From IMG/VR virus record IMGVR_UViG_2643221492_000001, positions 7,564-71,563 of that record: 64,000 nt of DNA; one strand, written 5' to 3'. The stretch is from a virus. Made by a program: the position numbers and the translations under genes. Below, in pieces: positions 33,548 through 59,834 of this stretch (positions are counted from its first letter, which is position 1; the number at the start of each line of letters is the position of its first letter). Under the pieces are notes generated by a model. That model was given only the letters and a program-made list of their open reading frames with translations. It made no database searches and had not been told where the DNA came from.

Positions 33548-33689
33548 GAGGGGGTTCGGTGCAACTAAGTGGTTGTCGCGATTTAAGTTTCTGGAAAACA
33601 CCGTGACAAAAAATCACCGGTAGGATTCTCGATTTTTGCATCTGTGTCAGAGGGAAGGCGGCGCATTTGTCCGCGCAGCCACCTCTGCC

Positions 33690-33705
33690 TACTACCATCG
33701 GTAGG
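33690..33705 (-). repeat. dispersed 16-bp motif, copy 1 (CCTACCGATGGTAGTA)
   Basis: Immediately after the stop codon of the giant gene. Confidence 0.8.
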
Positions 33706-36700
33706 CTAGTCCGAGCTTGCCGGAGACAATTTTTCCCGGGTCTTTTTCCCGAGTTCCTTCAGCTTCTCGATCTCGCGCGCTATCCGCCGCTCACCCTCCT
33801 CTCGGCTGATCTCGCCACGAGCCATCTTGCGGCCAATGGAACGGGCCTCGGTCTCGATCACCTTCTCTCTGGCCTTGGCATCCAGGCCGACGCTGGCCGC
33901 CTCATCAGCCAGGCGGCGAGAGTCGACCTTCACGCCCAGGGCTTTCGACACCGCCAAGCCGGCATCCGTTTCCTTTCCGAGCCCGGTCTTGGCGCCGTCG
34001 AGAGCCTTCTCGATGCCGGTCCAGCCATAGGGGTCCAGCATGCCGCTATCAACCGGGGCGCCCATCTTGCGCATGAGCCAGCCCAGGCCCGGCGTGGGCA
34101 AGTTCGGCAGCATGAACTTCGCGAGCGTGTCGGAGACCTTCATCACCATCTCGCCGGCCGTGTCGGTCGGCTTGACGATCTTGTCGCCGCGCCAGTTGGT
34201 GTTCGAGTAGAAGTCGATCAACAGGGAAAGCGGGCCTCCGATTGACAGCCAGCTCGGCAGGGGGACGCTGGCCTTGCTGCCGCTGGTGTCCGTGATGTCT
34301 CCGGCTGGGAGCCATCGGCGCACGTCCAGCCACATGGGGTCATTGCTCTCGTTGTTCCACGGCAGCCGCACCATTTTCGGAAGGCCCAGCGATTTGCCCT
34401 GCAGGTCTTCGGGCAACAGCCGCTCTTCCTTTTCGCGATCACCACCGGCACCCAGCGCCATATAGGTCAGCATCGACAACGCCTCACCGAGCGCGGCGTA
34501 CTTGGCGAACTTCCAGGGCTTCGTAACCACGGCCTTCGCAAGCAAGGGCACCGCCCGATAGGTGAAGCTGACGAACGGAAGCACGCTGCGACGTGCTGCC
34601 CGGACCCAAGGAGCGTTGATGTCGTAGTTGAGGAAGGCGTCGCGCGCAGCCTTGCCTGCGTCCGCGTCGCTCTTCCCTGCCTCGATCTCGTTGAGGAACT
34701 TCGCCAAGCGGAACACAGAGTCTTCCGACTGGTAGGCCTTGATCATCGCGCCCATGGTGCTACCCAGCGCCCGCCCCGGCAGGGTCTTCGTGGAAGCGAT
34801 GCCGGCCTCACGGAAACTGCCGTGGGCGGCAAGCGCGACCACGTTGGCAAGGCTGGCCTTCTGCACCGACTCCGGGTCGCTCTTGGCAATCTGCTGCAGC
34901 AGCGGCTCGATCACCGAAGTCCTGATCTCGTTGCTCGCGAACGACCCGCCCTCAGCGCCAGAATCGTCATAGCGCTCGATCAAAGCCTTCGCCCTGGCAT
35001 CCCCTGCCTTCGACGCAACGATGGTCTCCAGGGCCTTGCGAAGGTCGTTCACTCCGACCTCCGCGAGGTCGGCCATGATGAAGTTCGACATCACATTGTT
35101 GACGTGAACCGCGGGCGACAGTGCCGTCTTGCTGATCTTCCAAGCACCCAGCAGCTTGTCCCACAGGCCGTTGCGCAGCTCCATCGCGCCAGCGATGTCG
35201 GAATACATCACGGCCGGGAGGTACTTGCCAGCCAAGTCGCCATAGCGTGCAACCTGGGTTCCCTTGATCTTGGTCTCGGGCACCTTGACCCACTGGTCAC
35301 GAGTGAACGTCTGCGAGCCGAGCACTGCATGAGCACCGCTGATGTCGACGACATCGAGACCGGCATCGCTGTCCTTGCCGTAGTTGATGGCCGTCCACTG
35401 CAGCAGCCGCGAGGTCTCGACATCCCGGACGCCCTGTACCATCGTGCGCGCGAAGGCATACCTTGCATCTTCGATCTCGCCCATGCGCTGCCGTTCGGCC
35501 AGGGTGAAGTCGCGCCAAACCTTGATGTTGCCGGCCTTGGTCGCGTCGCGTACCTCCCAGGTGCCGGCGTTTGCGTAGCCTTCCAGTGCGACAGGCCGCT
35601 TTGCCCCTTGAACCAGATACTCGCGGCGAATGAGCTTGCCGCTGTTGTCCCGCTTCTCCAGCATTTCCAGCTTGAGCCCCTTCAGGTCTTCCGGCAGATC
35701 GCCGCGCACGCGATCCAGGCTTGCCTCCAGCTCCATGCCGCGCCCCTTGAACTGGTCGCCCTTCAGACGTTGAGCGCGCTGACGCGCGACAGCCTGAGAG
35801 CCGGTCAGCTCTGCCTCGTACTTCTTGTAGCTCCGATGGACGTAGGCCATCTTGTTGCGCTCGTAAGTCTCCGGCGTGATGAGCCCGAGTTTGACCGCCT
35901 CCTTGGAGAGGTTGTCGATGTCGGTCTTCATCTGCCGCATCACTTCCTGCTGAACTGCAGGAAGCCTTTCGAGAAGCTCGCGTTCGCGAGCTGTATCGGG
36001 CTTCTCCTGCAGCCATTGATAGGCGACGGAGAGCTGGTCAGGCGTCATAGACGAGAGACGATCCAAGGTGCCCTTGGCCTCGCGCATGAGCTTGTTCTCG
36101 CGAACGGTCTTGTCGAACTTTGCAGACAGGTACTCGGCAGGGAGCCCGTAGTCCGAGATGAGGCCTTGCTTGGCCTTCTCCAGCCAAGACCAGGACGACT
36201 TCGCATCGAGTGCACGCTCAGCCAGGCTCACAGCCTTGGCGCCGAGTGCCTTCACGCCCGAGACGCGCGCGAGCTGTTCGCCGATAGAGTCGACAACCTT
36301 GTTCGTAACTTGGAGGCCTGCCATTACTGGCGCAGTCGCCTTTATGCCCAAAGCACCAACGGCCGCCGCGGCGGCTCCGGCAGTACGCCCTTGATCCTCC
36401 TGGGCATGCTCCGATGCGCGGGAGCTACGGCGCAGTCCTAGTTCGGCGTCAGCGGCGACCGAGCGCACAGTCGGGCTTCTTCTGGCGGCCTCTGCGTAGG
36501 CCCTCGCCAGGTCCGTCCTCATCGAAATCGCAGCGTTGCCGAAGCCAGAGTCTTTGGAGAGGTCCACCTTGAAGCCTACATCCACCAGTCGGTTCAACCA
36601 ACGCGCCGCCCATCGGAAGAATCGCTTCAAACCGGTCGAATCCATCTCAGCCTGGAACTCTTCCCAGAATCTGTCCTGCTTAAACGCAGCGCCAGCCACG

Positions 36701-39700
36701 TCGGAAAGATTCTCTTCCTCGACCAATGAGTCGCTGACCTTCCGGCCGTAGCTCTGCTCCTGGAACTCACGATTTGCCAAGCTGTCCCGAGACACGCGGC
36801 GCAAAGCAGCCATCAGGCCCGCATGCAGGTCTGGGTGAGCCTCTTTGAGCGAATGCGTGAATTCGTGCCCGAAGGTCGAAACTGGGTCGACATCGCCACG
36901 AGCGTGGATGTAGACGGTCTTCGGGTCGCCAGGAACATAAGCGCCACCGGCAGGAGCGTTCGGATCGTCAGACTGGAAGTAGACCGTCTCGACGCCGAAA
37001 TACTGCTTCATCGCAGCGGCGAGCTGTCCTCTACTAGACTTCGGTTCGACCTCAACATGGCGTACCCGCACATCGGTGCCGGCATCCTTGCTGAGAGCTG
37101 CGGCGAGCCTGGAGACTCTCGACGCATCTGCCGAAGCAGCTTGACCATTGGAAGCCGCCGACGTGCTCTCTCGCGAAGAGCGGCGCGATAGCGCATCCAT
37201 CTCTTCGCCCATGCGCGAAGACCGGCGAGCAATCGGATCGGCGGAAGCATTCGGCGATTCTATGCCCGCTCCGTCCTGACTCACCCATTCGGGCAGCAAG
37301 CCGGTCTTCTGGTCTGCAAAGACAGTGTTGACGCCGCTGGCGGTCCGGTTGCTGTCACCGTGCGGCCCGTAGTTAACCCAGGAATTTTGGCCCCGGGTCT
37401 CGGAGGTCATGGCCCTTCGCGCCAGCGGCGAGTACATGGCCGAATGCAAGCGCCATGCGTTCTCCTCGCCATCAGCACGGAAGCCGACAGCCTCTTTGAC
37501 GTGCCCGAAGTAGTCGTGAACGATGCGGAAGACATCGTTCGCCACCATGTCAACGCCGTCGAGCGTCTCGCCAACCTTGCGGAGTAGCGGATTCGAGCTG
37601 GCGTCGAAGCTGCTGGAGCCGAATCCATCGGTCGTGGGGAACACCCAGAGGTGGTTGTTCTCCTGCACGTCGATGATCGCCAGGCGAGGCGACGCAGCAT
37701 ATGGGTCGCCGCCCTTCTCAAAGTCGATGAACTCGACTTTCAACTCCGGGTGATACTTCTTGATCGCCGCCCACTGCGCGAGAGTCTCCTCGATCATCTT
37801 GTCGTAGGCGGCCTTGACCTCTGGGTCAGAGGGGTCGTGAGCCATCTCGGCGTAGGCGTCAGCGATACGCCGCGCTCGCCCCTCGTCAACGCGAGCAAAC
37901 GTGGTCGGCGGCTTGTAGTCGATACCCGCGTCGCGAGCGTAAGCCTCGGCGACAGCACGGGCTTTCTCCGTGGGGCGGACTTCAACCGCTCCCCTGCCGG
38001 GAACCTCTATGGTTGCCGGGAGGCCTGCAAGTCTTCCGCGTACTTCTCCAGCGCTGCGATGTTCCGCCCCTGGTTGAACCGCCACCGACCGAGCGCTTCT
38101 TCGTGCTGCTCCGTCGTCTCGAAGTCCTCGCGCTTGGGAGCTGTTCTCTTCAGTTGCTCGGCCCTCTCGCGGGCCTGCGCTGCTGTGATCGCTTCCATTT
38201 ACGCCTGCCCTTCCTGGGGACTGTTCCCGTCCATCACGCTCGTCGCGAAGCCGCCCGGAATCAACTGGCTCTCCAGCCGGTCGGGAATCTTGCCGGTCTT
38301 GATGGCCTCTTCCATCTGCTCGATCCACAGATTGCGCGGCATCGCCTCGGGCGGGATCGACGCGCTCTTGCCGAACTTCAGCCGGAACTCGCGCATCAGC
38401 TCGGTCGCCCGGCTTGGCTTCAATGACACTCCTTGCGTACTCATAGGCTTTCGGCGCACGCCGCTCCAGTTCTGCTCTATTGGTGAAGTATGCGCGAACG
38501 ATCTGCGCATGAATCTCCGACTGCACGAGTGCAGCCGGGAGTGGCTTTCCAGAATCGGTTGCATCGAATGCAGCTTCAAGTGGGTACGCAAAAAGCGTCG
38601 CCAGCGAAGAGCCGTCTTGAGCGCCATAGAGGTCGAAGACCTCCTGAGCCACCGCGCCTTTAGCTTCAATACTACCATCGGTAGTAATAGCGAGCCGCGA
38701 ATCGCTCGCAGAGCGCATTGCGTTGCCGTCGAAGTCGCCGTTATGCGCCAACTCGTGGATGAGTTGCCCGCGGAATTCCTGCTGCTCTGCCAGGTTCGCA
38801 TTCAAGCCGGGGACCGTCGAGTCCACGTCGGTCTGCTTGAATGAGACGCCGCGCACAGTCTTGCCACGGAGGTTCTTCTTGAAGAAATTGGCAAGTCCCC
38901 CGGGGAACTTCGGCGTGTTGACAAAGAAGCCTTGCACCGAGTTCACCCAAGCGCGGGGCACGCCAAGCGCAAGAATGTCCCGCAGAGCCGCCGAGACAGC
39001 CTGAGACTGCTCATTCGACAGGGCGCCGAACATCGTGCCTGTCGGGTCGCCCATGAAGTCTGGTTCACCGAACTGATGCTCGTGATCGAACGTCGGATCG
39101 AGATCGACGCGGGCCTCGGGATCGATGTTCTCGGCCGGCCGACCAAATGCGGGCTGCGACTGCACGCCACGGCGCGCATCGCTTCGACGCAACGCCTCGA
39201 CTGCGGCTTCGCGATTACCCTCACGGGCGGCACGAGTTGCTGCAAAGAATTCGTCTCGGGTCATGTGCCCGGCCTTGACCGCATCGCGGCCCGCCTCCGT
39301 CACATGGGACACAAAGTCTTCATCAGCCGCCGTGGTTGACTCCTGCCGCGTTGACGTGATCTGACCTTGCTCGCCAGCGATCTGTCGCAGCGCCTCGATC
39401 ATCGCATCAGCGTCCTTGCCGCGCAGCACCGCTACTGCGCGACGAGGCTCGGCTGCGATGGCCGCGCGTGCCATACCGATGTCGTCGCCAGCAATGGGGG
39501 CCTTTGCCAAGAGCGACTCTGCGGTCTTGGCTGCCATGCGGTTCAGCTCCCCGCTGATGCGGGCTTTGTCGGCTGCTCTCCCAACCAGTCGCGTTGCCCC
39601 CAAACGGTCGCTTGCCGCGCCGGCTTGGCGCATTGCCTTGGGGCTCAGAAGACGCGGCGCGACCGCGAGCGGCCCATCGGCCAACGCGGCACGCAGCAAA

Positions 39701-42219
39701 GCTGATTGCGTCGCGTCTTCCGGCGTGGCCGAAACAACGGAACGTGGTTCGCCAGCCGCGCCTGGCTTTACGACCAGCTTTTCGTCGGGATTGGCGTAGA
39801 AGAAGTAGCTGATCGAGCCATCGGCCTCGACCCTGGTCACAACGCCCAGTTCGGATGTGGGCGACAGGGCGCGAGCAGCAGCCATAGAGGTCTGCTCGAT
39901 CTCGACCTTGCGCCTGGCGCGCTTCGTATTGGCTCTCTCCGCAAGCTCGCGCATGCGATCTTCGAAGCCCAACTCCCGCTGGCGCTGGGCATCGATCCAC
40001 TCAGCGCGCCTGGCTTCGTCGCCCTTCTTTGGGAACAGCTTGGATGCCTCGGATTCCAGGCGCTCCGTCGCGATCTGGTCGCTGCTGCGAGTCTCACCCT
40101 GCACTCGCGCCTGACCCTCAGCGTCCACGGAGATCGGCGTCGGAGTCGCTCGCCGTGTCTGGTCGAAGCCCAACTCACCCGGAGCGCGAGCAGAAGGAGA
40201 GGTGATCTCGGCACGGCCGCTCTTGCGCGGCAAGTCGCCCAGCGTGGCATCGCGTTCCTGCGGACGAGCGGACTGTTCGTCGGTTACTGCGTTGCCGCGG
40301 CCGTCAACCGAGATCGGCGTCTGCTGCCCACGCGGTGCTGAAGGTTCGAAGCCGAGCTTGCCCAGCTCGTCGCGAACGATGTCTGCACGGCCGACTGCCT
40401 TGGCAGCAGGCTCGAAACTCGTATCGCGCACCTGGGTATCGCCATCGGTGCGAGCTGCCCCCTCGCTGTCGACAATGATCGGGGTCGGCGTTGAGCGTGG
40501 CGTAGGCTCGTATCCCAGAGCCTTCAGTTCGTCCCGCACCGTCTGGCGGACCTCACTCGTGTCGGCTCGGCCGGACACTCGCGCCGCCGCCTCGAACGGA
40601 GGCTCCACGCCATCCATGCGTGCGTTTCCGCGGCTGTCCACACGAACAACAGGAGCTGGCAGGGCGAGCGGCGCAGAGCCCGGCGCCTCTGCATCCACGA
40701 CCGTGCCCGCGTCGATAGCAGCTCCAGGCTTGCCATGCCTCGTGATCGCCCCCCTCACCCCACCCATGCCGGCGCCACCAGCGGCGCCCAATGCGAATTC
40801 TCCGAACGATCCATCCCCGAGATCGCGGGTATCGCCAGTCGAATCATTCACGCCCTTGCGCTGCGCGACCCCCTCCCCCACCTCCTGGATGCCCTCTTCG
40901 GCAGCTCCAAGCACCGCGCCGATCACGGCTCGCGCAACGCTGCCCTTCGCTGCGCTTTCGAGTGCATGGCCGCCTGCCTTGCCGAGCAGTGCGCCAGTCA
41001 GCGCGCCGCCCGCAGCGGATACCGGTGCCACGTACTTTGCAACGCGATCCTCCGTCTCCTTCGCAAGGGCGGCACGCGCGTCCGCAGGCGCCTCGCCTTT
41101 GGCAATACGTTCGCGAAAGACCGGCGAGATGGCCGCGAGCTGCTCGTCCGTCTTGCTGCCGAACCAGTCGCGCACCTCACTGACGGCTGAGCCCACCCCT
41201 TGCGAGGCGCCGACGAGGGTGCCGGTTGCAATCTGCGCCGGAATGGACTGCCCGCGTGTGCTTACCGCGATGCCGACCTGCGGCAGAACTTGGCCCGAGA
41301 TGTTGGCAGCCTGCAGGCCGAAGCCTGCTGCAGTTGGAGACTTGCCCAGGGTCAAGCCAGACGCATCACCCTCGCGCACTGCCTGAATGATGTTGCCCTC
41401 GGGCGTGGTGTTCTCCATCGCCGTCTTCGCCGCCTGGCTCCGGGTGCCGAGGATCGCCTCGCCCTTCTTCGTGAGCCATCCGCCGACCGGATTGGCGACG
41501 GCGGCAAGCACCTTGCCAGGTACACCAGTGCCGTGCTTCACGTAGGCCAGTCCAGGGTCTTCCTTCCAGGCCTTGTCAATCTCCTCCTGTCCGATGTCCC
41601 CGGCCTTGCCGATCCCGGTCAGGGCATCGCCCGCTGACTTGACGACGCTCCCCCCGAATTGCTTCAGGTAGTCCATCGCCCCGACACTCTCTTCAGGCGC
41701 ATCGAGGAAGGCGTCGGCAGACGGCGCATCCACGACGGGCGATTCATCAGGGATGTCGAGAAACGCATCAGCGCTCATCCCGCGCTTAGCGGCAGTTCGA
41801 CTAACCTTGCCGCGAGAACTGCCTGGCTCTGCGATTTCGGAGTGAATCTTCGAAGCGTAGGACGCCGTTTCCGGGTTGTTCCAAGAATCTCGGTTCCACC
41901 CGTTGTTGTAGGCGCGCGCCGCATCGTCCGGGTTCTGGAACTTCGCGAGGTTCTCCTTCATAGCCTCGCGATGGATGTACAGCGCATCAGCTTCGTTGAA
42001 TGGATCGAGCTTGCGGCCGGCGCGCTCTGACAGCGTGCGCAACGTCTTCGGCATGACCTGAGCGAGCCCCATGGCGCCCGCCCTGGAGACGGCAGCCGGG
42101 TCGTTGTTCGATTCCACCCTGATCTGGGCTGCCGACCAACCCTTGGGAAGTCCAAGAAGCCTGTCCGTTTCGGCGAGGTAGGTGTCTCGGTCGAAGTCGA
42201 GGAAGTCGTCTGCGTTCAT
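33706..42219 (-). CDS. 2837-aa polyvalent internal virion/ejection protein: N-terminal lytic transglycosylase, three zincin-like motifs, LPD38-like C-terminus
   Basis: RVESNN..SRAGAMGLAQVMP..AYNNG (SLT); HELAH, HDYFGH..GEENAW, HEFTH; C-terminal DVRRWLPAGD region; last of three ejection-type genes. Confidence 0.85.
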   Translation of the reverse strand: MNADDFLDFDRDTYLAETDRLLGLPKGWSAAQIRVESNNDPAAVSRAGAMGLAQVMPKTLRTLSERAGRKLDPFNEADALYIHREAMKENLAKFQNPDDAARAYNNGWNRDSWNNPETASYASKIHSEIAEPGSSRGKVSRTAAKRGMSADAFLDIPDESPVVDAPSADAFLDAPEESVGAMDYLKQFGGSVVKSAGDALTGIGKAGDIGQEEIDKAWKEDPGLAYVKHGTGVPGKVLAAVANPVGGWLTKKGEAILGTRSQAAKTAMENTTPEGNIIQAVREGDASGLTLGKSPTAAGFGLQAANISGQVLPQVGIAVSTRGQSIPAQIATGTLVGASQGVGSAVSEVRDWFGSKTDEQLAAISPVFRERIAKGEAPADARAALAKETEDRVAKYVAPVSAAGGALTGALLGKAGGHALESAAKGSVARAVIGAVLGAAEEGIQEVGEGVAQRKGVNDSTGDTRDLGDGSFGEFALGAAGGAGMGGVRGAITRHGKPGAAIDAGTVVDAEAPGSAPLALPAPVVRVDSRGNARMDGVEPPFEAAARVSGRADTSEVRQTVRDELKALGYEPTPRSTPTPIIVDSEGAARTDGDTQVRDTSFEPAAKAVGRADIVRDELGKLGFEPSAPRGQQTPISVDGRGNAVTDEQSARPQERDATLGDLPRKSGRAEITSPSARAPGELGFDQTRRATPTPISVDAEGQARVQGETRSSDQIATERLESEASKLFPKKGDEARRAEWIDAQRQRELGFEDRMRELAERANTKRARRKVEIEQTSMAAARALSPTSELGVVTRVEADGSISYFFYANPDEKLVVKPGAAGEPRSVVSATPEDATQSALLRAALADGPLAVAPRLLSPKAMRQAGAASDRLGATRLVGRAADKARISGELNRMAAKTAESLLAKAPIAGDDIGMARAAIAAEPRRAVAVLRGKDADAMIEALRQIAGEQGQITSTRQESTTAADEDFVSHVTEAGRDAVKAGHMTRDEFFAATRAAREGNREAAVEALRRSDARRGVQSQPAFGRPAENIDPEARVDLDPTFDHEHQFGEPDFMGDPTGTMFGALSNEQSQAVSAALRDILALGVPRAWVNSVQGFFVNTPKFPGGLANFFKKNLRGKTVRGVSFKQTDVDSTVPGLNANLAEQQEFRGQLIHELAHNGDFDGNAMRSASDSRLAITTDGSIEAKGAVAQEVFDLYGAQDGSSLATLFAYPLEAAFDATDSGKPLPAALVQSEIHAQIVRAYFTNRAELERRAPKAYEYARSVIEAKPGDRADARVPAEVRQERVDPARGDAAQSVDRADGRGHQDRQDSRPAGEPVDSGRLRDERDGREQSPGRAGVNGSDHSSAGPREGRATEENSSQARGLRDDGAARRSARSVAVQPGAEHRSAGEVRGRLAGLPATIEVPGRGAVEVRPTEKARAVAEAYARDAGIDYKPPTTFARVDEGRARRIADAYAEMAHDPSDPEVKAAYDKMIEETLAQWAAIKKYHPELKVEFIDFEKGGDPYAASPRLAIIDVQENNHLWVFPTTDGFGSSSFDASSNPLLRKVGETLDGVDMVANDVFRIVHDYFGHVKEAVGFRADGEENAWRLHSAMYSPLARRAMTSETRGQNSWVNYGPHGDSNRTASGVNTVFADQKTGLLPEWVSQDGAGIESPNASADPIARRSSRMGEEMDALSRRSSRESTSAASNGQAASADASRVSRLAAALSKDAGTDVRVRHVEVEPKSSRGQLAAAMKQYFGVETVYFQSDDPNAPAGGAYVPGDPKTVYIHARGDVDPVSTFGHEFTHSLKEAHPDLHAGLMAALRRVSRDSLANREFQEQSYGRKVSDSLVEEENLSDVAGAAFKQDRFWEEFQAEMDSTGLKRFFRWAARWLNRLVDVGFKVDLSKDSGFGNAAISMRTDLARAYAEAARRSPTVRSVAADAELGLRRSSRASEHAQEDQGRTAGAAAAAVGALGIKATAPVMAGLQVTNKVVDSIGEQLARVSGVKALGAKAVSLAERALDAKSSWSWLEKAKQGLISDYGLPAEYLSAKFDKTVRENKLMREAKGTLDRLSSMTPDQLSVAYQWLQEKPDTARERELLERLPAVQQEVMRQMKTDIDNLSKEAVKLGLITPETYERNKMAYVHRSYKKYEAELTGSQAVARQRAQRLKGDQFKGRGMELEASLDRVRGDLPEDLKGLKLEMLEKRDNSGKLIRREYLVQGAKRPVALEGYANAGTWEVRDATKAGNIKVWRDFTLAERQRMGEIEDARYAFARTMVQGVRDVETSRLLQWTAINYGKDSDAGLDVVDISGAHAVLGSQTFTRDQWVKVPETKIKGTQVARYGDLAGKYLPAVMYSDIAGAMELRNGLWDKLLGAWKISKTALSPAVHVNNVMSNFIMADLAEVGVNDLRKALETIVASKAGDARAKALIERYDDSGAEGGSFASNEIRTSVIEPLLQQIAKSDPESVQKASLANVVALAAHGSFREAGIASTKTLPGRALGSTMGAMIKAYQSEDSVFRLAKFLNEIEAGKSDADAGKAARDAFLNYDINAPWVRAARRSVLPFVSFTYRAVPLLAKAVVTKPWKFAKYAALGEALSMLTYMALGAGGDREKEERLLPEDLQGKSLGLPKMVRLPWNNESNDPMWLDVRRWLPAGDITDTSGSKASVPLPSWLSIGGPLSLLIDFYSNTNWRGDKIVKPTDTAGEMVMKVSDTLAKFMLPNLPTPGLGWLMRKMGAPVDSGMLDPYGWTGIEKALDGAKTGLGKETDAGLAVSKALGVKVDSRRLADEAASVGLDAKAREKVIETEARSIGRKMARGEISREEGERRIAREIEKLKELGKKTREKLSPASSD
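38007..38198 (-). CDS. nested 63-aa ORF B in the +1 frame of the giant gene
   Basis: MEAITAAQARERAEQLKRTAPKREDFETTEQHEEALGRW...; ATG directly after the TAA of ORF A; G/C-rich third positions in this frame. Confidence 0.7.
   Translation of the reverse strand: MEAITAAQARERAEQLKRTAPKREDFETTEQHEEALGRWRFNQGRNIAALEKYAEDLQASRQP
38199..38423 (-). CDS. nested 74-aa ORF A in the +1 frame of the giant gene (alternative start ATG 38444)
   Basis: AAGGAG RBS 5 nt before TTG; reads ..ELMREFRLKFGKSASIPPEAMPRNLWIEQMEEAIKTGKIP..; G/C-rich third positions in this frame. Confidence 0.72.
   Translation of the reverse strand: MKPSRATELMREFRLKFGKSASIPPEAMPRNLWIEQMEEAIKTGKIPDRLESQLIPGGFATSVMDGNSPQEGQA
38670..38685 (-). 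promoter_or_regulatory. 16-bp motif copy 2, overlapping a candidate extended -10 promoter (TGG TAGTAT)
   Basis: Perfect TACTACC-N3-GGTAGTA palindrome; AT-rich codons inside a GC-rich gene; about 240 nt upstream of nested ORF A. Confidence 0.6.
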
Positions 42220-43469: not shown

Positions 43470-43479
43470 TTCGCGCTCC

Positions 43480-44340: not shown

Positions 44341-44343
44341 GGC

Positions 44344-44838: not shown

Positions 44839-44853
44839 GCTCGCATCAGTAGG
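44838..44853 (-). repeat. 16-bp motif copy (CCTACTGATGCGAGCA)
   Basis: Overlaps the first base of the ATG at 44838. Confidence 0.7.
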
Positions 44854-44903
44854 ATTGCCGAGCATCCTAGGCCTCTAGCCGCGAGCAGCGGACGGTTTTC
44901 TCG

Positions 44904-48731: not shown

Positions 48732-48732
48732 T

Positions 48733-48748
48733 TACTACTATTGGTAGG
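48733..48748 (-). repeat. 16-bp motif copy (CCTACCAATAGTAGTA)
   Basis: Ends 1 nt before the ATG at 48731. Confidence 0.7.
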
Positions 48749-48761
48749 TTGCAGGCCGTGC

Positions 48762-49298: not shown

Positions 49299-49307
49299 AG
49301 TGGCTCC

Positions 49308-49895: not shown

Positions 49896-49905
49896 GGTGT
49901 TTTTC

Positions 49906-50544: not shown

Positions 50545-50553
50545 GACGGTTCC

Positions 50554-52110: not shown

Positions 52111-52113
52111 GGG

Positions 52114-52755: not shown

Positions 52756-53369
52756 CAGCCCTGCCCTCCACCCAGCGTTGCAGCGAATGAAAGAAGCTGC
52801 ACGCCCTTCGCCGTGTCCGCGGCGTTGGTGTTGATCGTGAGCGCGCGGCCGGCGATGAAGTTCTCGGCGCTGGCCTGGAACACAGCCGACACGCCGTTGT
52901 CGGTGTTCTTCGTGGCATCAGTGACCGCAGCAGGGAGCGCCGTGACGGAGACAGTAGCCTTCGGAGCTGGAGCTGGACTCGGAGGGATCACGACTGGCGG
53001 ATACACGGCAAATCGGAATGGGTCGGCCTTCTGCCTCATCCAGACCTTGAACGGCTTGCTGGCGGCCTTCCCCCACCCCCTGGCCTGAACGCTCATCTCG
53101 GTCATGTCGACCTCGCGAACGTATTCCGCGCCCTGGTTCTTGAGCACGTCGACCAGGCCTAACGTTGTCAGCTTGGAGATCGACTGCATCTCGCCCGCCA
53201 CGAGTGGGACATCGATTTGCTCGGTAAAAAACTCCCCCCGCTGCAGCGCCAGAGCCCGCATGAAGTCGTTGAAGTAGCCGAGCAGCGTCGCATCGCTCCA
53301 ACGGGGCGACGTTCCTGCCGGGTCATTCAGGATGACGCGAGCACCAGCGATGGCGAGCGAGGGGACCAT
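52755..53369 (-). CDS. adaptor-like structural protein
   Basis: ILNDPAG..RWSDATLLGYFND, FAVYPP. Confidence 0.6.
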   Translation of the reverse strand: MVPSLAIAGARVILNDPAGTSPRWSDATLLGYFNDFMRALALQRGEFFTEQIDVPLVAGEMQSISKLTTLGLVDVLKNQGAEYVREVDMTEMSVQARGWGKAASKPFKVWMRQKADPFRFAVYPPVVIPPSPAPAPKATVSVTALPAAVTDATKNTDNGVSAVFQASAENFIAGRALTINTNAADTAKGVQLLSFAATLGGGQG

Positions 53370-53376
53370 CGCCGAC

Positions 53377-53808
53377 TTACTCCAGCTCGACGACGTTGAA
53401 GCGCGGGATGTTGTCCGAGGTGTACTCGCCCGTTTCCTTGCCGTTCTCGATCACCGGGCTGAACTCGGTGACATAGAGGCTGCGCAGATGCGCGATGAAC
53501 CCCGTGTCCAGCTCGATTTCCTTGCCGCGCTTCGCGACGAAGTTGAAACCGTTGACGGAGCCGAACACGTCGAACTTGCCATCGGGGCCTGAGCCGACCT
53601 CGATACGGCAGCGCTTCTTAATGCCGGTACGCGGGTCGTCGCCCTTGCCGGTCGCGACGCCCTTGTCGCTTTCGGTGGCGGCGCGACCGGGCGTCGGGTC
53701 GTTTTCCTTGAGCAGCGCTTCGAGGGCGCTGTTCGACATGGACTTGAGCGAAGGCTCCTCGCCGAGCTTCAGTTCGAGCGCGCGAGCAACCATTTCAGCC
53801 TTGGTCAT
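53377..53808 (-). CDS. hypothetical virion-associated protein
   Basis: AGGAG RBS; VFGSVNG..KRGKEIEL..RFNV. Confidence 0.55.
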   Translation of the reverse strand: MTKAEMVARALELKLGEEPSLKSMSNSALEALLKENDPTPGRAATESDKGVATGKGDDPRTGIKKRCRIEVGSGPDGKFDVFGSVNGFNFVAKRGKEIELDTGFIAHLRSLYVTEFSPVIENGKETGEYTSDNIPRFNVVELE

Positions 53809-53875
53809 ATGAATCTCCTGTTGAATGAATGGAAGAGAGGACCGCCACAGGCAAGCCCTCTCCTTCGCCGACGAC

Positions 53876-54856
53876 TTAGTTCGTGACGGCGATCTCGCCG
53901 CGCGACATCCAGGCGTCGTTGAGGATCACGCAGGCGTGGTAGGCCTTCCAGCCTGCCGAGCCACGCTGCCCCAGAGGGTCGCCCTGGACTGGCTTCGGGT
54001 TCACGATGGTCGGCGTGATAGCCGCCTTGCCCTTGAGCGGCACACACGCCCAGGCGTCCTTCCCGAGGTAGATCACCGGGAACACGTCGCAGTTGGTGCC
54101 GCTGGTCGACTGCATCGTGCCGCCAGCCGCGCCGCCCGCGTCAGCGAACGGGTCGCAGAGCGTCGAGGTGAGATAGCGGCAGTCCTCGACAGCGCCGACC
54201 TCGTTCTCGTAGGGCGAGAGCGAGCCGTAGGTCTCCACGGCCTTGAAGCCCGCCATGTCGCGCACGTCGTTCTCGATGTCGGTGTGGCCGATGGCGATGT
54301 ACGAGGCCTTGACGTTGCGGGTCTCGTAGGCCGGCGTCGAGCGCAGCACCGTGGTGATCGGCTTGGCGCTCTGGCGCTTCAGGGTCTTCGTGACCTTGCG
54401 CTGCAGCGCGGTCGTGATCTTCGTGTTCACCGCGGCACGGGTCGCGCCATTGGCATAGAACACGCTGGTGCCAGCCTTCAGCACGTTGTAGCGGACCTTC
54501 TCCAGCATCTGGCCGGCCTGCTCGCCCAGGATGGCCTGGGTCTCCTGCAGCACCGGATCGGTGTGCAGGTCTTGCACGACATCGGTCAACTCGATGAAGT
54601 CGCCGTACTGCTTGATCTCGACGCTCACATCGGTCTTGGTGAGCTGCTTGCCGGCAGGCGTCACGCCTTCGGCCAGAGCCACCGGCACGTTCGAAAGCGC
54701 GTTGTAGCGGCGGAAGATCATCGTCGAAGTGCTGTTCGACGGCAGAGGCTTCGTCTGGCCGAACTTCTCGAAGATGAGGTAGGGAATCGCGCGCGTCAGC
54801 AGCTCGGCTGCTTGTACGCCCGCGACGGCGGGGGAAATATCACCGTACTTGGTCAT
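53876..54856 (-). CDS. major capsid protein, N4-gp56-like family
   Basis: LPSNST..FRRY, EGVTP, QYGDFIELTD, DPLGQRGSAGWK, ILNDAWM. Confidence 0.88.
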   Translation of the reverse strand: MTKYGDISPAVAGVQAAELLTRAIPYLIFEKFGQTKPLPSNSTSTMIFRRYNALSNVPVALAEGVTPAGKQLTKTDVSVEIKQYGDFIELTDVVQDLHTDPVLQETQAILGEQAGQMLEKVRYNVLKAGTSVFYANGATRAAVNTKITTALQRKVTKTLKRQSAKPITTVLRSTPAYETRNVKASYIAIGHTDIENDVRDMAGFKAVETYGSLSPYENEVGAVEDCRYLTSTLCDPFADAGGAAGGTMQSTSGTNCDVFPVIYLGKDAWACVPLKGKAAITPTIVNPKPVQGDPLGQRGSAGWKAYHACVILNDAWMSRGEIAVTN

Positions 54857-54875
54857 GGCAATCTCTCAGGTTGAA

Positions 54876-55913
54876 TCAGGTCAGTTCGGGTGCCGCACGG
54901 GCTGCCGCTGCCGCGAATGCACTGTCGAAGTCGTCGGGCTTGCCCGCTGCCGCGCTCGGTGCCACAGGGGCGCTCCGGCTGGGCTGAGTGCTAAGCGCAC
55001 GCTTCTGTGCGTCGCGTCTGGCTTCATGTCCCGAAGGCGCTGCAGGAGCTGCAGCGGGAGCAGCAGACGGCGCGGGCGCGGCAGCCGGAGACGCCGCAGG
55101 GCTCGATGCGCGGTACTGGTTCAGCACCTCGATCACCTCTGCGGACGTGCCGGATTCCGCGACGCGCGCGAAGTGCTGCTGCGTCCAGGTCGGCTGGCTT
55201 TGCACCCAAGCAATCAGCTCGGGTGACTGGACAACGGCTTCCCAGTCAGGGTGAGCCTTCGCGATTGCCGCGAAGTGGTCTGCGTCCGACTGGGCTTGCT
55301 GCTTGGACTCGATGGGCTCGATGCGAACGTCGAGTTCCTTGATGCGCGCGGCGACGCGATCTTCGAAGGTGCGCTCCAGAGTGGCGCGATCCTTCTTCAT
55401 CATCAGCGTGACCGCCTTGTAGACGGTCGGCGCGCTCTCCTTCAGCTCGGCGAGTAGCTCCTCGGCCTCGGCGTCCTCGGCGCTCGGCGCGACCGGAGCG
55501 GCTGCTGGCGCAGGGGCCGGTGCAGGCGGTTCGGCTTGCTTCGTCTTGAGGGCCTTCAGCTCGTCGGAGGTCGAGCGCAGGAGACCTTGCACAGTCGAGA
55601 GACGCTGACGCAGCTTCACCGGATCGTTTTCCTCGTCTGCTGCCGCTGGCGCAGAGGCCGGTGCGGGAGCAGGCGCGGCGGGCGCTGGAGCCTCGACGGC
55701 AGAAGCCGGAGTGGCAGGCGCGGGAGCGGCGACCGGTGCGGCTGCAGGAGCCGGGGCCGGAGCAGCGCCACCATCAGGGGCGGAATCAGTCGGCGCCGCC
55801 GAACTACCATCGGTAGGATCGTCGGTCGAAGGATCGCCACCCTCGTCGAGCGAAGCGCTCACCTGGGCGTTGCGGTTGCCGAAAGCTGCGTCAAATTCGT
55901 CGTCTTGTTCCAC
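54876..55913 (-). CDS. capsid scaffolding protein
   Basis: Acidic and Pro/Ala-rich; HPDWEAVVQS..WVQSQP; directly upstream of MCP. Confidence 0.75.
   Translation of the reverse strand: MEQDDEFDAAFGNRNAQVSASLDEGGDPSTDDPTDGSSAAPTDSAPDGGAAPAPAPAAAPVAAPAPATPASAVEAPAPAAPAPAPASAPAAADEENDPVKLRQRLSTVQGLLRSTSDELKALKTKQAEPPAPAPAPAAAPVAPSAEDAEAEELLAELKESAPTVYKAVTLMMKKDRATLERTFEDRVAARIKELDVRIEPIESKQQAQSDADHFAAIAKAHPDWEAVVQSPELIAWVQSQPTWTQQHFARVAESGTSAEVIEVLNQYRASSPAASPAAAPAPSAAPAAAPAAPSGHEARRDAQKRALSTQPSRSAPVAPSAAAGKPDDFDSAFAAAAARAAPELT
55802..55817 (-). repeat. 16-bp motif copy (CCTACCGATGGTAGTT)
   Basis: About 96 nt into the scaffold gene, with AT-rich codons CCT ACC GAT GGT AGT. Confidence 0.75.
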
Positions 55914-56002
55914 GTTGTCTTCTCGTTGAGAGATCGTCGCGTCAAGCGCGGCTCGATCCTGTTTGCCTTGCGGCGGGCGGCCGTGGGCTCACGCCTGGCC
56001 TC

Positions 56003-56227
56003 TTAGCCCTCGTCGCGAGGTGCACCTCGCGACACGGGCATGCTCAGGGCCTCGCGTATCAGGCGAAGCTCCTTGAATCTGTGCTGGACCTCGACAGCAT
56101 TGCCGTTGCTCGCCAGCTCTTCAATCAACTCCTTCTCGCGCTCGACCAACAGCGAAATGAACGACTGCAGGCTTTGTGTGTTGGAGGAGCCATGCATCGC
56201 GCGGCGCGCGGTTTCGAAGGGAGTCAC
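56003..56227 (-). CDS. hypothetical protein between the spanin and scaffold genes
   Basis: GAGAGG RBS, GTG start, helical 74 aa. Confidence 0.55.
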   Translation of the reverse strand: MTPFETARRAMHGSSNTQSLQSFISLLVEREKELIEELASNGNAVEVQHRFKELRLIREALSMPVSRGAPRDEG

Positions 56228-56832
56228 CTTGGCGCCTCTCGTCCATTGAGGAGAAGCAGGACTCGCTGCTCCTCGTAGAACCTCTGGATGGCTTCGAGCT
56301 GTAGAGCGTTTGGCTTCAGCACCAGCTCGATGTTCTCTGCGGCCCAGACGGCGACGGCTTTGCATGAGACGCTGCCATCCTCATCCGTCGCTCCACCTCT
56401 TGCAGTGGCATCGGCTTGCGAGGCGGCTTCGCCAGCTCGGGAGGAAGTGGTTGCAGCACCGGCTGCGGGCTCAGGCTTGACGACATTGCGGAGCACCCCG
56501 CCAACACGGCGAGGCAAACGAACATCAGGCAGGTCACGAAGGGCGCCCGATAGCGCGGCAAGCGTTGCATCAGCGTTCTCCCGTTGGGCATCGAGCTGGT
56601 TCTGAAGATTGAGCACCGACCGATTGGCAAGGTCTCTCTGCTGGCGTTCGATCCCAAGCGCCTGCACTGCTTGGTCGGCTCGTGCGTTGGCTTTGGAAAG
56701 GTCGTGACGTGCACCGCGCAGCACAAGCGCCTGGGACAGAACAACGGAGATGAGCACCATGACCACCACAACGCACGTCAGGGCGAGCGTCAGGCTTCCC
56801 TTCTGGTGGTGAGTGATCTTGCTTGCTCTCAT
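56224..56832 (-). CDS. i-spanin (Rz-like)
   Basis: N-terminal TM, coiled coil, SCKAVAVW..N..QL. Confidence 0.75.
   Translation of the reverse strand: MRASKITHHQKGSLTLALTCVVVVMVLISVVLSQALVLRGARHDLSKANARADQAVQALGIERQQRDLANRSVLNLQNQLDAQRENADATLAALSGALRDLPDVRLPRRVGGVLRNVVKPEPAAGAATTSSRAGEAASQADATARGGATDEDGSVSCKAVAVWAAENIELVLKPNALQLEAIQRFYEEQRVLLLLNGREAPR
56316..56570 (-). CDS. o-spanin lipoprotein (Rz1-like), embedded
   Basis: GGGAG RBS, lipobox LAGC, Pro-rich PLPPELAKPP. Confidence 0.7.
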   Translation of the reverse strand: MQRLPRYRAPFVTCLMFVCLAVLAGCSAMSSSLSPQPVLQPLPPELAKPPRKPMPLQEVERRMRMAASHAKPSPSGPQRTSSWC

Positions 56833-56839
56833 CGGTAGT
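56824..56839 (-). repeat. 16-bp motif copy (ACTACCGATGAGAGCA)
   Basis: Contains the Rz ATG. Confidence 0.75.
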
Positions 56840-56896
56840 GTTTTCGAATGCGGTGAGGATAGGGTTGGCCGTTCTTGACGCTGGACGCTTTTCTCG

Positions 56897-57424
56897 CTAC
56901 TGCGCCGCCATGCACTTCGTGTAGCGTTCGAGCTGGCGCGTCCACACGCCATAGCAGCGCTTGTTCGGCTGTCCGTTCACCATGGTCGAGCAGTCGTAGC
57001 CTGCGGCGTAGCGCCAGTTGAGCAACGCCTCGCACGCCCCCGCATAGTCGCCCTTCAAAAGCCATGTGCGCGGAGACAGCGGCTTGATCCAGTTGCCCGA
57101 GCCGTACTGGTACACCCAGTCCATGTAGGTGTCGTATTCGGCTTGGCTCAGGCTCACGCCGTCGAGCGATGCTCGGAAGACGGCTTCCTCCTTGCCAATG
57201 TGCGCCTGAGCCTTGACAAGGGCGCGCACGGGCGTGGTGGTGTCTCCGAGCTTTACCGGCGCGCCGTTCTCGTGGAACGTGCTGCCAAAGCCAACCGTAG
57301 GCCTGTCACCCTTGGTCGGGACCACAGCGGTGCTGGTGTAGCTCTCGCTCCCGACGATGGCGATGAAGCCGGCAGCGCTGAGCGCAAGACTGGCGACGGC
57401 GATGCGTACTCGATTCGCCTGCAT
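56897..57424 (-). CDS. SAR-type endolysin (GH24)
   Basis: Hydrophobic N-terminus (IAVASLALSAAGFIAI), ESY..GDRPTVGFGST, CYGVWTRQLERY..C. Confidence 0.88.
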   Translation of the reverse strand: MQANRVRIAVASLALSAAGFIAIVGSESYTSTAVVPTKGDRPTVGFGSTFHENGAPVKLGDTTTPVRALVKAQAHIGKEEAVFRASLDGVSLSQAEYDTYMDWVYQYGSGNWIKPLSPRTWLLKGDYAGACEALLNWRYAAGYDCSTMVNGQPNKRCYGVWTRQLERYTKCMAAQ

Positions 57425-57425
57425 C

Positions 57426-57773
57426 TCAGTCCTCCTTCACCAGCTCAGCCCACTGGCTGCGCGTCATCAGAGGCTCGCCAGCAACCCAGCCACGGCGTAC
57501 CGCGACCGGCCGCAGCCAAGCTCGCCAGACCTTCTTGAAGAGCCACTCGCTGAAGAGCGCGGAGGTGTAGATCGCCGCCACGAGCGAGGCGATCTTGTCC
57601 CAGGGCAGTCCGACGATGATCCAGTACCAGGTCGGGTCGGAGGTTGGCGCCACGGCTTGGGCGACAGTCGTCGCGACCTGGCCTGCTGCATCGGTGTTGG
57701 CGCCGATTGCGGCGACGATTGCGGTGGTGCCTTTGGCGATGGGGGCCTTGATCTCGGTCATTTGCGGGTTCAT
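57426..57773 (-). CDS. holin (pinholin-like)
   Basis: Hydrophobic segments, IASLVAAIYT, basic C-terminus; upstream of the endolysin. Confidence 0.65.
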   Translation of the reverse strand: MNPQMTEIKAPIAKGTTAIVAAIGANTDAAGQVATTVAQAVAPTSDPTWYWIIVGLPWDKIASLVAAIYTSALFSEWLFKKVWRAWLRPVAVRRGWVAGEPLMTRSQWAELVKED

Positions 57774-59833
57774 ACGAGGGCAGGCTCCTGTTGGGCTGCG
57801 GGTTGCTGCGCGATCTGCGCTGCGGCTCCATTCACGATTTGGCCGGCGCGCTGGGCGGCTTCCGTGAGCTGGAGGATGATCTGATCGACGTTCTGCACCA
57901 GGGTCTCGGGTGGAATGCGCATGGCCTTCGCGATGGTCGCTACCGTTTGCATGGCAGCCGCGCCCATCTGCTTCTCCTGGTTCTCCTGGTCGGCCTCGCC
58001 CTGGGTCTTCAAGAACATGTCGGGGTCGAGGTCGAGATTGCGGGCTCGTTCTTCGAACAGCTCCCGCACCTTCGCCAGATCAGGCGCCATCTTGATGAGG
58101 TCGGCCGTGAAGCCGGCGAGCGCGTTGGAGCGAATCTCCTTCGCCACGAGCGACGAACTGCCGCGCGCTGTAACCTCGTGATCGCCCTTGATAGTCGGGT
58201 CATCGTTGAACTGCATGTTCCAGTCGTAGCAGTCGCCGATGAACGGCTCCGTGATGCCGTCGTCCCAGTTCTTCGCGAGGTCTTTCAGCGAGATGTTTGC
58301 CTGGCCCATGAGCATCGACAAGCCACCGACCGTCTTGCTGACCGCCGCGCCGTCCGTCCCGCCGTATGTGAACCTGGGGACGGTCGTCACCTCGTCGCCT
58401 AGCTCCATGAAGAGCTTCAGGAGTTGGGCGAACTCGGCGGTACGGATGGGGATGTCGATCACCCGGACGGCCGGGTACTGCGCATCTGCGGCCGATCCCG
58501 TGCGATGCCACACGCGGCCAGAGGTGAAGGTGTCGAGGTCTTGCTCCTCCGGCATCAGGCGGGTGTTGACCTCAAGGTTCGGCACGGCCGCCATCGCAGC
58601 GTTGTCCACCATGGCACGAACCGAAGTGTTGGCGCCCCTTTCGGTGTCGCGCATGATGGAGCACATGCCCTCGCCCCAGATGCTCGACTCGTCCTTGTCG
58701 AAGTAGAAGAGCTTGAAGGGACGCGATCCGCTGTCGAAGGGGTTGATGTCGATGCGGATGACGATGTGGCCGACCTGCCAGACCTGAGCCTCGTAATCCA
58801 CGCTCTCGTCTTCGACCGGCAGTCCGGCCGCCTTGAGCGTCGAGGCCTTGATCGTGCCCCACCGCTCCATGATCCGAAAGCGGCCCGTCGGGTTCGGCTT
58901 GTTCACCTGGTCCTTCGACAGCTCTCGCAGGCTCTGCTCCCACAGTTCGAGTTGGTTCACATTGCCGTTCGGAAAGGCGGAGAGCACCTTGTCGATCTGC
59001 TCAGGCATGTAGGCGTCATCGCGCCGCAGTTTGGCGATGTCGCTGGCCGTGGCTGGGCGCGCATCGAATTCGTAGCGGCACTGCTCGCGCTCGGTCGCCA
59101 GGGGGTCAGGGTAGTAATACCAGAGCGGGACGAAGGCGAAGTGAGGCTTGACGACCTTGCGGTCTTCCAGCACCCATTGCCCTTGCATGCGGCGCCAGCG
59201 ACGAGTCATCTGTGGCGACCCGAGCGGCCCCTTCAGGATGCCGGTGCCGTACATGTTGCCGGAGGCAATAACCTTGCGGCAGACCGACTCGTATCCGCCC
59301 TCTTCGAGCTGGTCGTTGACCGTCTTCTCCATACGCGCAGCGCAATCGCGAGCAACCTCTCGGATGGCGCTCTCGATGGCGGTCGGGCTCAGTTGCTGGC
59401 CGGCCTCCTGCGCGCGCTGCCGCAGTTGTGCGATCTCGTCGGCGTACATCTCCTCGTCGAGGGTTGGCATCGGCGTGGCTGTGATCGTCCAGTTCTTGTC
59501 GCCGGCCGGGAAAAGCATGTCGGACAGCCGCGCATTCAGGCTCTTCACCTTGGCGCGCGACAGGCGCAGGTAGAGCATCGAGCGCTTCTTGTCCTTCAGG
59601 CGCTGCAGCGTCGCCGCGTCGTATATGCCCTTGTACTGGCGCAGGTCGTCGAGCCAGCGTTGCTCAGTCTCCAAGCGGAAGGTCCGAGCTTCATCGAACT
59701 CCTTGAGGTGCGCGTTGCCCAGTTCCTCCAGCAGCTTCGCAAAGGCAGCCGGGTCGACCGCCTTCATGCTCTCATCGGTAGGACTGTCGGCCGAGAGTTG
59801 CTCGACCGTTTCGACGTTTTCCATGCCTGCCAT
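57770..59833 (-). CDS. portal protein
   Basis: RWLDDLRQYKG, YGTGILKGP, WGEGM, TVGGLSMLMG; 687 aa directly after TerL. Confidence 0.9.
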   Translation of the reverse strand: MAGMENVETVEQLSADSPTDESMKAVDPAAFAKLLEELGNAHLKEFDEARTFRLETEQRWLDDLRQYKGIYDAATLQRLKDKKRSMLYLRLSRAKVKSLNARLSDMLFPAGDKNWTITATPMPTLDEEMYADEIAQLRQRAQEAGQQLSPTAIESAIREVARDCAARMEKTVNDQLEEGGYESVCRKVIASGNMYGTGILKGPLGSPQMTRRWRRMQGQWVLEDRKVVKPHFAFVPLWYYYPDPLATEREQCRYEFDARPATASDIAKLRRDDAYMPEQIDKVLSAFPNGNVNQLELWEQSLRELSKDQVNKPNPTGRFRIMERWGTIKASTLKAAGLPVEDESVDYEAQVWQVGHIVIRIDINPFDSGSRPFKLFYFDKDESSIWGEGMCSIMRDTERGANTSVRAMVDNAAMAAVPNLEVNTRLMPEEQDLDTFTSGRVWHRTGSAADAQYPAVRVIDIPIRTAEFAQLLKLFMELGDEVTTVPRFTYGGTDGAAVSKTVGGLSMLMGQANISLKDLAKNWDDGITEPFIGDCYDWNMQFNDDPTIKGDHEVTARGSSSLVAKEIRSNALAGFTADLIKMAPDLAKVRELFEERARNLDLDPDMFLKTQGEADQENQEKQMGAAAMQTVATIAKAMRIPPETLVQNVDQIILQLTEAAQRAGQIVNGAAAQIAQQPAAQQEPALV
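59767..59782 (-). repeat. 16-bp motif copy (CCTACCGATGAGAGCA)
   Basis: About 51 nt into the portal gene; 15/16 identical to the copy at 56824. Confidence 0.75.
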
Positions 59834-59834
59834 T

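Follow-up and report, generated by a model that had tools for sequence, protein, structure and literature searches.

The window analysed here is a stretch of 64,000 nucleotides corresponding to bases 7564-71563 of a 97.6-kb virus record (IMG/VR IMGVR_UViG_2643221492_000001), the remainder of which was read as three further pieces (L001-L003; window = L002 + 63936 and window = L003 + 83836). Window coordinates are therefore also used below for positions past the window end. The record carries a P2-like prophage and, to its right, a podophage-like prophage referred to as prophage 2, along which a short motif is repeated in the direction of transcription. A gene map based on PHROG and Pfam searches shows that prophage 2 consists of four blocks of genes on alternating strands (Table 1). 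From 67828 the late operon encodes, in this order, the small terminase, a Tad2-like protein, the large terminase, an SU10-type portal, the lysis proteins and the scaffold, then an N4-gp56-type capsid, adaptors and tail proteins and, last, at 33706, a 2837-aa ejection protein with an SLT domain.

Alignment of the copies with their flanks led to a 17-base motif, CCTACCRATRNNAGYWW, mostly preceded by A or T. When the entire 97.6-kb record was scanned with a weight matrix, about 23 strong copies (score of at least 16.5 bits) were found from 33689 to 86064, that is over the whole of prophage 2 and past the window end. No match above 12 bits was present in the 41 kb to the left of prophage 2, P2-like prophage included, which served as comparison DNA; specificity is thus measured against this neighbouring DNA of the record. 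The host chromosome is 6.9 Mb long. Since the matrix was trained on the motif sites themselves, two matrix-independent tests were added. The core 8-mer CCTACCRA occurs in the 56 kb of prophage 2 in 17 co-oriented and 0 anti-oriented copies, for about 1.7 expected per strand, and has 2 matches outside prophage 2 for about 2.6 expected. A de novo search for 12-mers against a third-order Markov background ranked the motif first, with 9 occurrences observed and 0.07 expected.

The motif had been noticed beforehand by a model that saw the letters alone (hereafter the sequence-only reading), which listed eight minus-strand copies in the late region, all pointing in the direction of transcription, saw none in the P2-like prophage and called for a comparison of the complete prophage with the host chromosome. 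Its consensus, with at most 2 mismatches, gives 12 matches for 0.72 expected, and 0 of 100 shuffles reach 12. All eight copies are indeed on the minus strand where they had been placed. Six of them score 22-28 bits and the one at 48733 is equally strong; the eighth, at 45567 (10 bits), is doubtful, and together with a match at 59913 it stands at chance level (10-12 bits). The orientation and the lack of the motif in the P2-like prophage were both borne out by the counts given above. The restriction to the late region was not, as the copies cover all of prophage 2.

The strand of the motif matches all four gene-strand blocks exactly, which links it to transcription rather than to replication or packaging. 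A Chi-like signal oriented by one of the latter two processes was ruled out on the same ground, the orientation of the motif flipping four times with the gene strand. The flanks of the copies are unrelated to one another. A conserved hairpin, either as an N4-like promoter or as an RNA structure, was ruled out as well, because only 3 of the 23 copies fold below -5 kcal/mol.

Table 1. Motif copies, transcription units and candidate regulatory genes of prophage 2 (window coordinates)
Feature	Position	Strand	Sequence	Bits	Remarks
Motif copy	33689..33705	-	CCTACCGATGGTAGTAG	24	just beyond the stop codon of the last late gene, beside the left end of the prophage
Motif copy	38669..38685	-	ACTACCGATGGTAGTAT	27	perfect 6-3-6 palindrome within the gene of the 2837-aa ejection protein
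Motif copy	44837..44853	-	CCTACTGATGCGAGCAT	22	final base is the start of the ATG of a 164-aa gene
Weak match	45566..45582	-	CCTACTGATGCCGGCAG	10	its TGATG is the stop/start overlap of two genes; doubtful
Motif copy	48732..48748	-	CCTACCAATAGTAGTAA	28	directly before the ATG (48731) of a 544-aa internal virion protein gene
Motif copy	55801..55817	-	CCTACCGATGGTAGTTC	25	about 100 nt into the scaffold-like gene
Motif copy	56823..56839	-	ACTACCGATGAGAGCAA	23	start of the spanin-like gene; counterparts in rel1 and L004
Motif copy	59766..59782	-	CCTACCGATGAGAGCAT	25	codons 18-23 of the portal open reading frame (SPTDES), then an in-frame ATG
Weak match	59912..59928	-	CCTCGCGATGAAAGCAT	12	in the 3' end of the terminase gene; doubtful
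Strong copies, first minus block	33689, 38669, 44837, 48732, 55801, 56823, 59766, 65950, 66122	-			
Strong copies, first plus block	67861, 68102, 68206, 68785, 70353, 72287, 72573	+			
Strong copies, second minus block	77992, 78733, 80140	-			
Strong copies, last plus block	82760, 83056, 85396, 86064	+			
Late operon	33706..64000 in the window, on to the small terminase gene at 67828	-			from PHROG/Pfam
Plus block	68244-74417	+			includes DUF932 and DUF3268 genes
Minus block	74414-80136	-			includes RusA, HNH, DUF1367 and a replication-type helix-turn-helix protein
Plus block	from 80508	+			repressor-like gene, RecT, SSB, integrase at 88138-89274
P0122 (Rep1), 186 aa	80508-81068 (L002 16572-17132), outside the window	+			helix-turn-helix and S24-like domain
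P0123, cro-like gene, 103 aa	beside P0122	-			next to the leftward early operon; divergent pair with P0122, overlapping start codons

Relatives of the window phage were then compared for the presence of the motif. Its capsid has thousands of homologues, few of which are close, and the closest cultured phages are at most 44% identical in this protein. The main relative, rel1 (Logan SRR35790128_20484, 59.4 kb), is a near-whole genome obtained by contig walking, which equals a differently permuted JGI contig of 59.6 kb. Compared with the window phage, rel1 shows 88% identity in the capsid and 58-90% in its proteins in general. At the threshold of 16.5 bits it yields about 25 copies, which switch strand as in the window phage and mostly stand at the same gene junctions; when the junctions are compared one by one, roughly 15-17 of the 23 copies of the window phage are matched in rel1. 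The conservation in related phages on which the sequence-only reading had made its proposal depend is thus found. The same motif pattern was seen in L016, a 5.8-kb contig from another sample, and in L004, a 6.5-kb fragment. In L008 and L009, with capsids about 70% identical, no repeated motif was found before the late genes. Other searches gave little: a portal search returned no relatives from genome_contigs and one 6.5-kb fragment from viral_contigs, the promoter-operator 23-mer was in neither of these sets and in one 2.6-kb metagenome contig, and megablast against phages matched a lysozyme fragment only. The DNA runs that contain the phage are plant, root and soil metagenomes, and the run search found it in no RNA-seq run.

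Two classes of sites were distinguished. Class I sites lie in promoters, which were called by a sigma-70 rule (at least 10 of 12 consensus matches) used alike for the window phage and its relatives. Four promoter-like sites were obtained in prophage 2, three of them with the motif or a variant of it. At 67861 and 85396, a perfect TTGACA is followed two bases later by the motif, which takes up the promoter spacer (TTGACA-17-TATACT and TTGACA-16-TATTAT, respectively). The consensus scanner found the first of these unprompted, as well as TTGACA-16-TAGCAT (L002 16287-16314), whose spacer and -10 hexamer hold the palindromic variant TCTACCTTTGGTAGCAT (window 80234). Class I sites read as an invariant CCTACCGATAGTAGT, a quasi-palindrome CTAC-N5-GTAG whose two half-sites are spaced by 10 bp from centre to centre, and the arrangement TTGACA-(at/aa)-CCTACCGATAGTAGT is common to the window phage, rel1 and L016. 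All strong sigma-70-like promoters of rel1 carry the motif in the spacer, among them that of SSB and a perfect TTGACA-17-TATAAT at the position homologous to window 67853.

The promoter TTGACA-17-TATACT is separated from the first plus-strand gene by a non-coding leader of about 350 nt (67882-68243; L002 3946-4307). This leader is 86% identical to that of rel1 and has conserved hairpins, one stem (TCTGCC/GGCAGA) being kept while the loops differ. It matches no Rfam family. Either a regulatory RNA or a leader serving the divergent late operon may be present here. A second palindrome, AGTGCGCTTTGCACT, is present at 68185-68199 and 68765-68779 (L002 4249-4263 and 4829-4843), 6-7 nt upstream of two motif copies, each followed by the same gene start, AGGAGATCAGCATG. 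It is partly conserved in the relative and is probably the site of another regulator.

Class II comprises about 18 copies, in which C2 T3 A4 C5 C6, A8 and A13 G14 are kept, the right half is degenerate and the other positions are variable. These copies are co-directional with transcription in every operon and usually occupy short intergenic gaps. The 350-nt leader, RecT and the giant ejection-protein gene hold others, the portal and scaffold genes carry theirs within ~100 nt of their 5' end, and one stands beyond the last late gene. In the four phages taken together, a start codon follows the motif by -2 to +7 nt in 31 of 57 strong copies, and outside promoters about one copy in two also serves as a Shine-Dalgarno sequence, 2-7 nt ahead of the start codon. 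The sequence-only reading had placed copies on or next to start codons, and this is what was observed: those at 44837 and 48732 abut an ATG, and the copy at 56823-56839 holds the ATG (MRASKITHHQKGSL...) at which the spanin-like ("Rz") gene most likely starts. An in-frame ATG occupies the same motif position in this gene in rel1 and L004, and the listed open reading frame (56224-56952, minus strand) would therefore be about 38 codons too long.

For a few copies, gain or loss coincides with that of a small intergenic gap. This is the case for 48732, which lies in a 30-nt gap where the rel1 genes overlap and have no copy. The copy at L004 5415 is not in the window phage. The copy at 33689, with its palindromic core CTACC-GAT-GGTAG, has no counterpart in rel1, and the one at 38669 is not kept in the giant gene of rel1. 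The copy at 44837 has its counterpart at the same gene junction in rel1 (position 20150), and that at 59766 is conserved. In the portal and scaffold genes, the motif falls in poorly conserved, low-complexity N-terminal segments and is kept base for base (CCT ACC GAT GGT AGT). It is read as CCT-ACC-GAT-GxT/GAG-AGT/AGC in a genome of GC-rich third positions, in accordance with the earlier remark that copies inside genes force AT-rich codons, and these rare codons persist while the adjacent residues differ between the phages. The scaffold copy at 55801, which translates to DD-PTDGS through rare codons, is identical in DNA in rel1 and nearly identical in L004, between flanks that cannot be aligned.

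A candidate for the protein that binds the motif is encoded just outside the window. P0122 belongs to a divergent pair with the cro-like gene P0123, and its promoter is the variant-bearing TTGACA-16-TAGCAT. In this region (80178-80511; L002 16242-16575), 250 nt separate the repressor gene from its promoter upstream, which falls within the 3' end of the cro-like gene; face-to-face promoters are therefore implied, an arrangement known from P2 and 186. Past its stop codon, the cro-like gene has a terminator-like hairpin, just before the motif copy at 80140. Only three homologues of P0122 were found among 5.8 billion proteins. The three family members with a readable DNA context, P0122 included, are all in motif-bearing phages; the fourth, P0126, is on a 1.5-kb contig and was left out of this count. 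In all four proteins the helix-turn-helix segment KSYEMARRY is invariant and the surrounding region nearly so, and the C-terminal half diverges. The AlphaFold model of P0122 (pLDDT 78) matches the full-length lambda repressor and its C-terminal domain, LexA and UmuD (3bdn, E 2e-7), and the rel1 homologue has Pfam matches to S24 (3e-7) and HTH_3 (0.006). No match was found between the P0122 sequence and solved structures, the TipsyTheTRex repressor included. At the S24 nucleophile position, assigned by analogy with LexA and CI rather than by structural superposition, the four proteins have GDNAM, GDDAM or EDEAM in place of GDSM. Judging from this lack of the GDSM serine, P0122 is probably not self-cleaving.

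An additional module separates the repressor gene from RecT in the window phage only (81069-81961; L002 17133-18025). It encodes a 63-aa cro-like protein on the minus strand and a 221-aa helix-turn-helix/Peptidase_S24 protein, and is followed at 81998 by the only strong promoter-like site that lacks the motif, TTGACA-17-TACATT. The second helix-turn-helix/S24 gene (L002 17360-18025) was ruled out as the required binder, being absent from the motif-bearing rel1. In two relatives, a back-to-back divergent pair of motifs lies just downstream of the repressor gene (L015 10603-10644 and L016 1790-1831), at the place where the module is inserted in the window phage.

Taken together, these observations lead us to propose, with a probability of roughly 60%, that the motif provides the operators and stoperator-like sites of the prophage's own repressor, most likely P0122, which would hold all four transcription units silent. 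In this proposal, the 17-bp motif is the recognition site of a prophage-encoded repressor. On class I sites, which would act as operators, the repressor bound in the 16-17 nt spacer would block initiation, and the weaker palindromic variant in its own promoter would provide negative autoregulation. On class II sites, the repressor of the lysogen, present on all four transcription units, at each boundary between gene blocks and every few kb along the late operon, would form a roadblock and silence read-through, as described for L5 stoperators. The position of the motif between the -35 and -10 hexamers of an optimally spaced sigma-70 promoter argues for a repressor rather than an activator, as activation of the MerR type requires spacers of 19-20 nt. 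Of the two regulators that the sequence-only reading had envisaged outside the window, the repressor is thus favoured, with P0122 just past the window end and copies in operator position, and the late activator appears unlikely. Binding of class II sites by the same protein is the most economical reading, because they keep all the invariant bases. The anatomy, enrichment, orientation and conservation of the sites and their overlap with promoters are observed, and the occupancy of class II sites, the stop of elongation and the identity of the binder are what we infer.

Several points weigh against this proposal. Repressors of the lambda CI type normally bind symmetric sites as dimers, whereas class II sites have only one good half-site. 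Position 12 is a G in 25 of the 31 start-adjacent copies, and positions 10-14 can be read as a Shine-Dalgarno sequence (GAG/GGAG); as these copies sit on ribosome-binding sites, their co-orientation may be a by-product rather than the sign of a function that depends on orientation. Independent support for the orientation comes only from about six asymmetric copies with no start codon next to them (56823, 65950, 68102, 68206, 82760 and 83056). In alignable DNA, identity from BLAST is 83% in the motif and 78% in its flanks, a small excess that is diluted by the variable motif positions; many flanks show no alignment. The argument of conservation therefore rests on the invariant positions and on the persistence of the motif in unalignable DNA. 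Finally, binding could be due to the cro-like protein or to some other regulator. A by-product of ribosome-binding sites nevertheless does not seem to be the whole story, since these six or so copies are all co-oriented and the conserved half is never on the other strand.

The placement of the start-adjacent copies also suits an action in the mRNA, in which class II copies would be start-associated sequences, a phage or host factor or the rRNA binding the CCUACCRAU box just ahead of the Shine-Dalgarno sequence and so tuning translation initiation, and the promoter copies alone would be DNA operators. The GGAG/GAG at positions 11-14 of these copies agrees with it, co-orientation would be automatic, and a direct precedent exists in the start-associated sequence of Cluster K phages (GGGATAGGAGCCC, 3-7 nt before starts; PMC3203893). 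However, the promoter-spacer copies have the same invariant bases upstream of the transcription start, and the copies within genes and after the operon are not close to any start codon. The distance between motif and start also varies, from an ATG inside the motif to one 7 nt after it, no RNA pairing is conserved, and G-type positions such as A14 are invariant even where no ribosome-binding site is needed, so that we regard this explanation as rather unlikely. A similarly low likelihood is given to the possibility that all copies bind the repressor without any meaning of their orientation, class II being low-affinity auxiliary sites (for looping, local concentration or titration) located at ribosome-binding sites. 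As GTAG, the right half-site, differs from GGAG by a single base, sites may simply accumulate on ribosome-binding sites and be oriented automatically. The near-symmetric class I site, with its 10-bp centres, fits a helix-turn-helix dimer, the fold predicted for P0122 is of the lambda-CI dimerisation type, and the turnover at 48732 and L004 5415 is in line with such sites. Against it, the six asymmetric copies away from starts all point with transcription, and CCTACCRA is never found on the non-transcribed strand in 56 kb.

Many co-oriented copies ahead of genes are also what would be expected from promoters of a phage-encoded or virion-delivered polymerase or sigma-like factor (T7-type, T4 late or N4 hairpin). 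In three copies, the core CTACC-GAT-GGTAG might fold into a stem of 5 bp and a loop of 3 nt as in N4 early promoters, and the giant protein has a weak PHROG match to the N4 virion polymerase family, in the N-terminal part of the latter. This match is limited, however, to residues 309-503 of the giant protein, which has SLT as its only Pfam domain and nothing relevant among solved structures. With start codons 0-7 nt after the motif, transcripts starting downstream of it would have no ribosome-binding site; 20 of the 23 copies cannot form the hairpin, and the TTGACA copies represent sigma-70 promoters of the ordinary kind, with the motif as spacer. No RNA polymerase gene is found among the early-region open reading frames. 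A phage RNA polymerase promoter was rejected on the lack of such a gene and on the giant protein having an SLT domain only, and the whole group of promoter explanations is considered very improbable. Repeats without function, arising by chance, codon bias or recent duplication, would account for the two weak copies at 45567 and 59913, which are the only ones at chance level. Given the more than 100-fold enrichment over the third-order background, the 17:0 strand bias, the unrelated flanks and the conservation in a phage whose proteins are 58-90% identical, hardly any credence is left for this last explanation.

The repressors of L5 and TipsyTheTRex bind operators in promoters and intergenic stoperators oriented with transcription, and the repressor bound to L5 stoperators stops read-through in the lysogen (PMC9283540). 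The network of Cluster A phages (L5 gp71, Bxb1, TipsyTheTRex) is similar to the present one in its short, asymmetric and phage-specific motif of more than 20 copies, co-oriented and placed in promoters and short intergenic gaps of both early and late operons (PMC9283540). In contrast, prophage 2 belongs to a Gram-negative soil or root host and to a podophage-like virion with an N4-gp56-type capsid and an SU10-type portal, and its 17-bp motif is quasi-palindromic in promoters and in many places fused to ribosome-binding sites. The Cluster A repressor is a monomer with a helix-turn-helix and a Stoperator domain, whereas our candidate is predicted to have the lambda CI/LexA fold. Four sequence-level features of the L5 network are thus present here, with a candidate from another repressor family and with the addition of the ribosome-binding-site fusion.

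The Cluster K start-associated sequences (SAS/ESAS) are also asymmetric, contain AGGAG 3-7 nt before starts, have one orientation and are not in the host (PMC3203893), and they share GATAGGAG with the present motif. Unlike it, they belong to the non-structural arm only and are unreported in promoter spacers or genes, while here seven strong copies are in the late operon and several in promoter spacers. Location beside a start codon with a ribosome-binding site, which characterizes these sequences, applies to the 31 start-adjacent copies and not to the remaining ones. In phages of Proteobacteria, the 22-bp repeats of T1-like phages (T1, Stevie) and an SAS-like repeat of 26 bp in the Felix O1-like Mordin are asymmetric, mostly intergenic and oriented with transcription, and were likened by their authors to stoperators or SASs (PMC4319613, PMC4611695). 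In contrast to the present case, these are unrelated sequences of lytic phages, with no promoter-spacer copies and no repressor linked to them.

With repressors of the lambda CI/LexA type, P0122 would share the N-terminal helix-turn-helix and the modelled C-terminal S24 fold, and its homologues differ by the lack of the Ser-Lys dyad (GDSM) of RecA-stimulated self-cleavage. The hairpin promoters of N4 (stem of 5-7 bp, 3-nt loop, virion polymerase domain) are different, given the 3 of 23 copies that fold and the lack of a polymerase match. Among temperate phages of Proteobacteria, C1 of P1/P7 is a repressor with an asymmetric 17-bp site scattered over the genome and often overlapping promoters; this repressor has no relationship to lambda CI. 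The promoters under the control of P1 operators are separate ones, and to our knowledge these operators have not been described as co-oriented within operons or fused to ribosome-binding sites. In the literature searched, the term stoperator is used almost only for actinobacteriophages.

Silencing of the stoperator type, by a single repressor that occupies dozens of oriented sites and arrests initiation as well as elongation, has so far been tested only in actinobacteriophages, with their unusual monomeric repressor. The same genome-level signature is seen here in uncultured, temperate, podophage-like prophages of soil and root Proteobacteria with a candidate repressor of the ordinary lambda-CI fold. 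If our proposal is true, the strategy would be convergent and perhaps more widespread than thought, and stoperators and start-associated sequences would be linked, because the same motif plays both apparent roles. We tentatively extend this to a scenario that we hold to be possible, on balance not the likely one: a CI-fold repressor with a non-cleavable S24-like domain would have independently evolved whole-genome silencing of the Cluster A kind in a Gram-negative phage, with stoperator-type sites on ribosome-binding sites, one 17-bp element being operator, roadblock and signal for the start of translation, perhaps recognised in the DNA as well as in the mRNA. A simple test system in a Gram-negative background would be available, made up of a small protein and a 17-bp site. 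The motif is also of practical use for annotating this group of phages, as a marker of early promoters and gene starts, and its recognition sequence could define immunity groups.

In a distant relative, Pseudomonas phage Rollin (OR577172.1; L018 1-500; capsid 44% identical), the top repeated word is a palindrome, AAAAGGTAGYAAST-TRCTACCTTTT, with 4-5 copies clustered in 500 bp and not dispersed; the CTACC half-site is common to it and to the motif. In the late operon of the window phage, a minus-strand gene (66404-67174; L002 2468-3238) encodes an N4 gp49/Sf6 gp66 domain fused to a Tad2-like (anti-Thoeris) domain.

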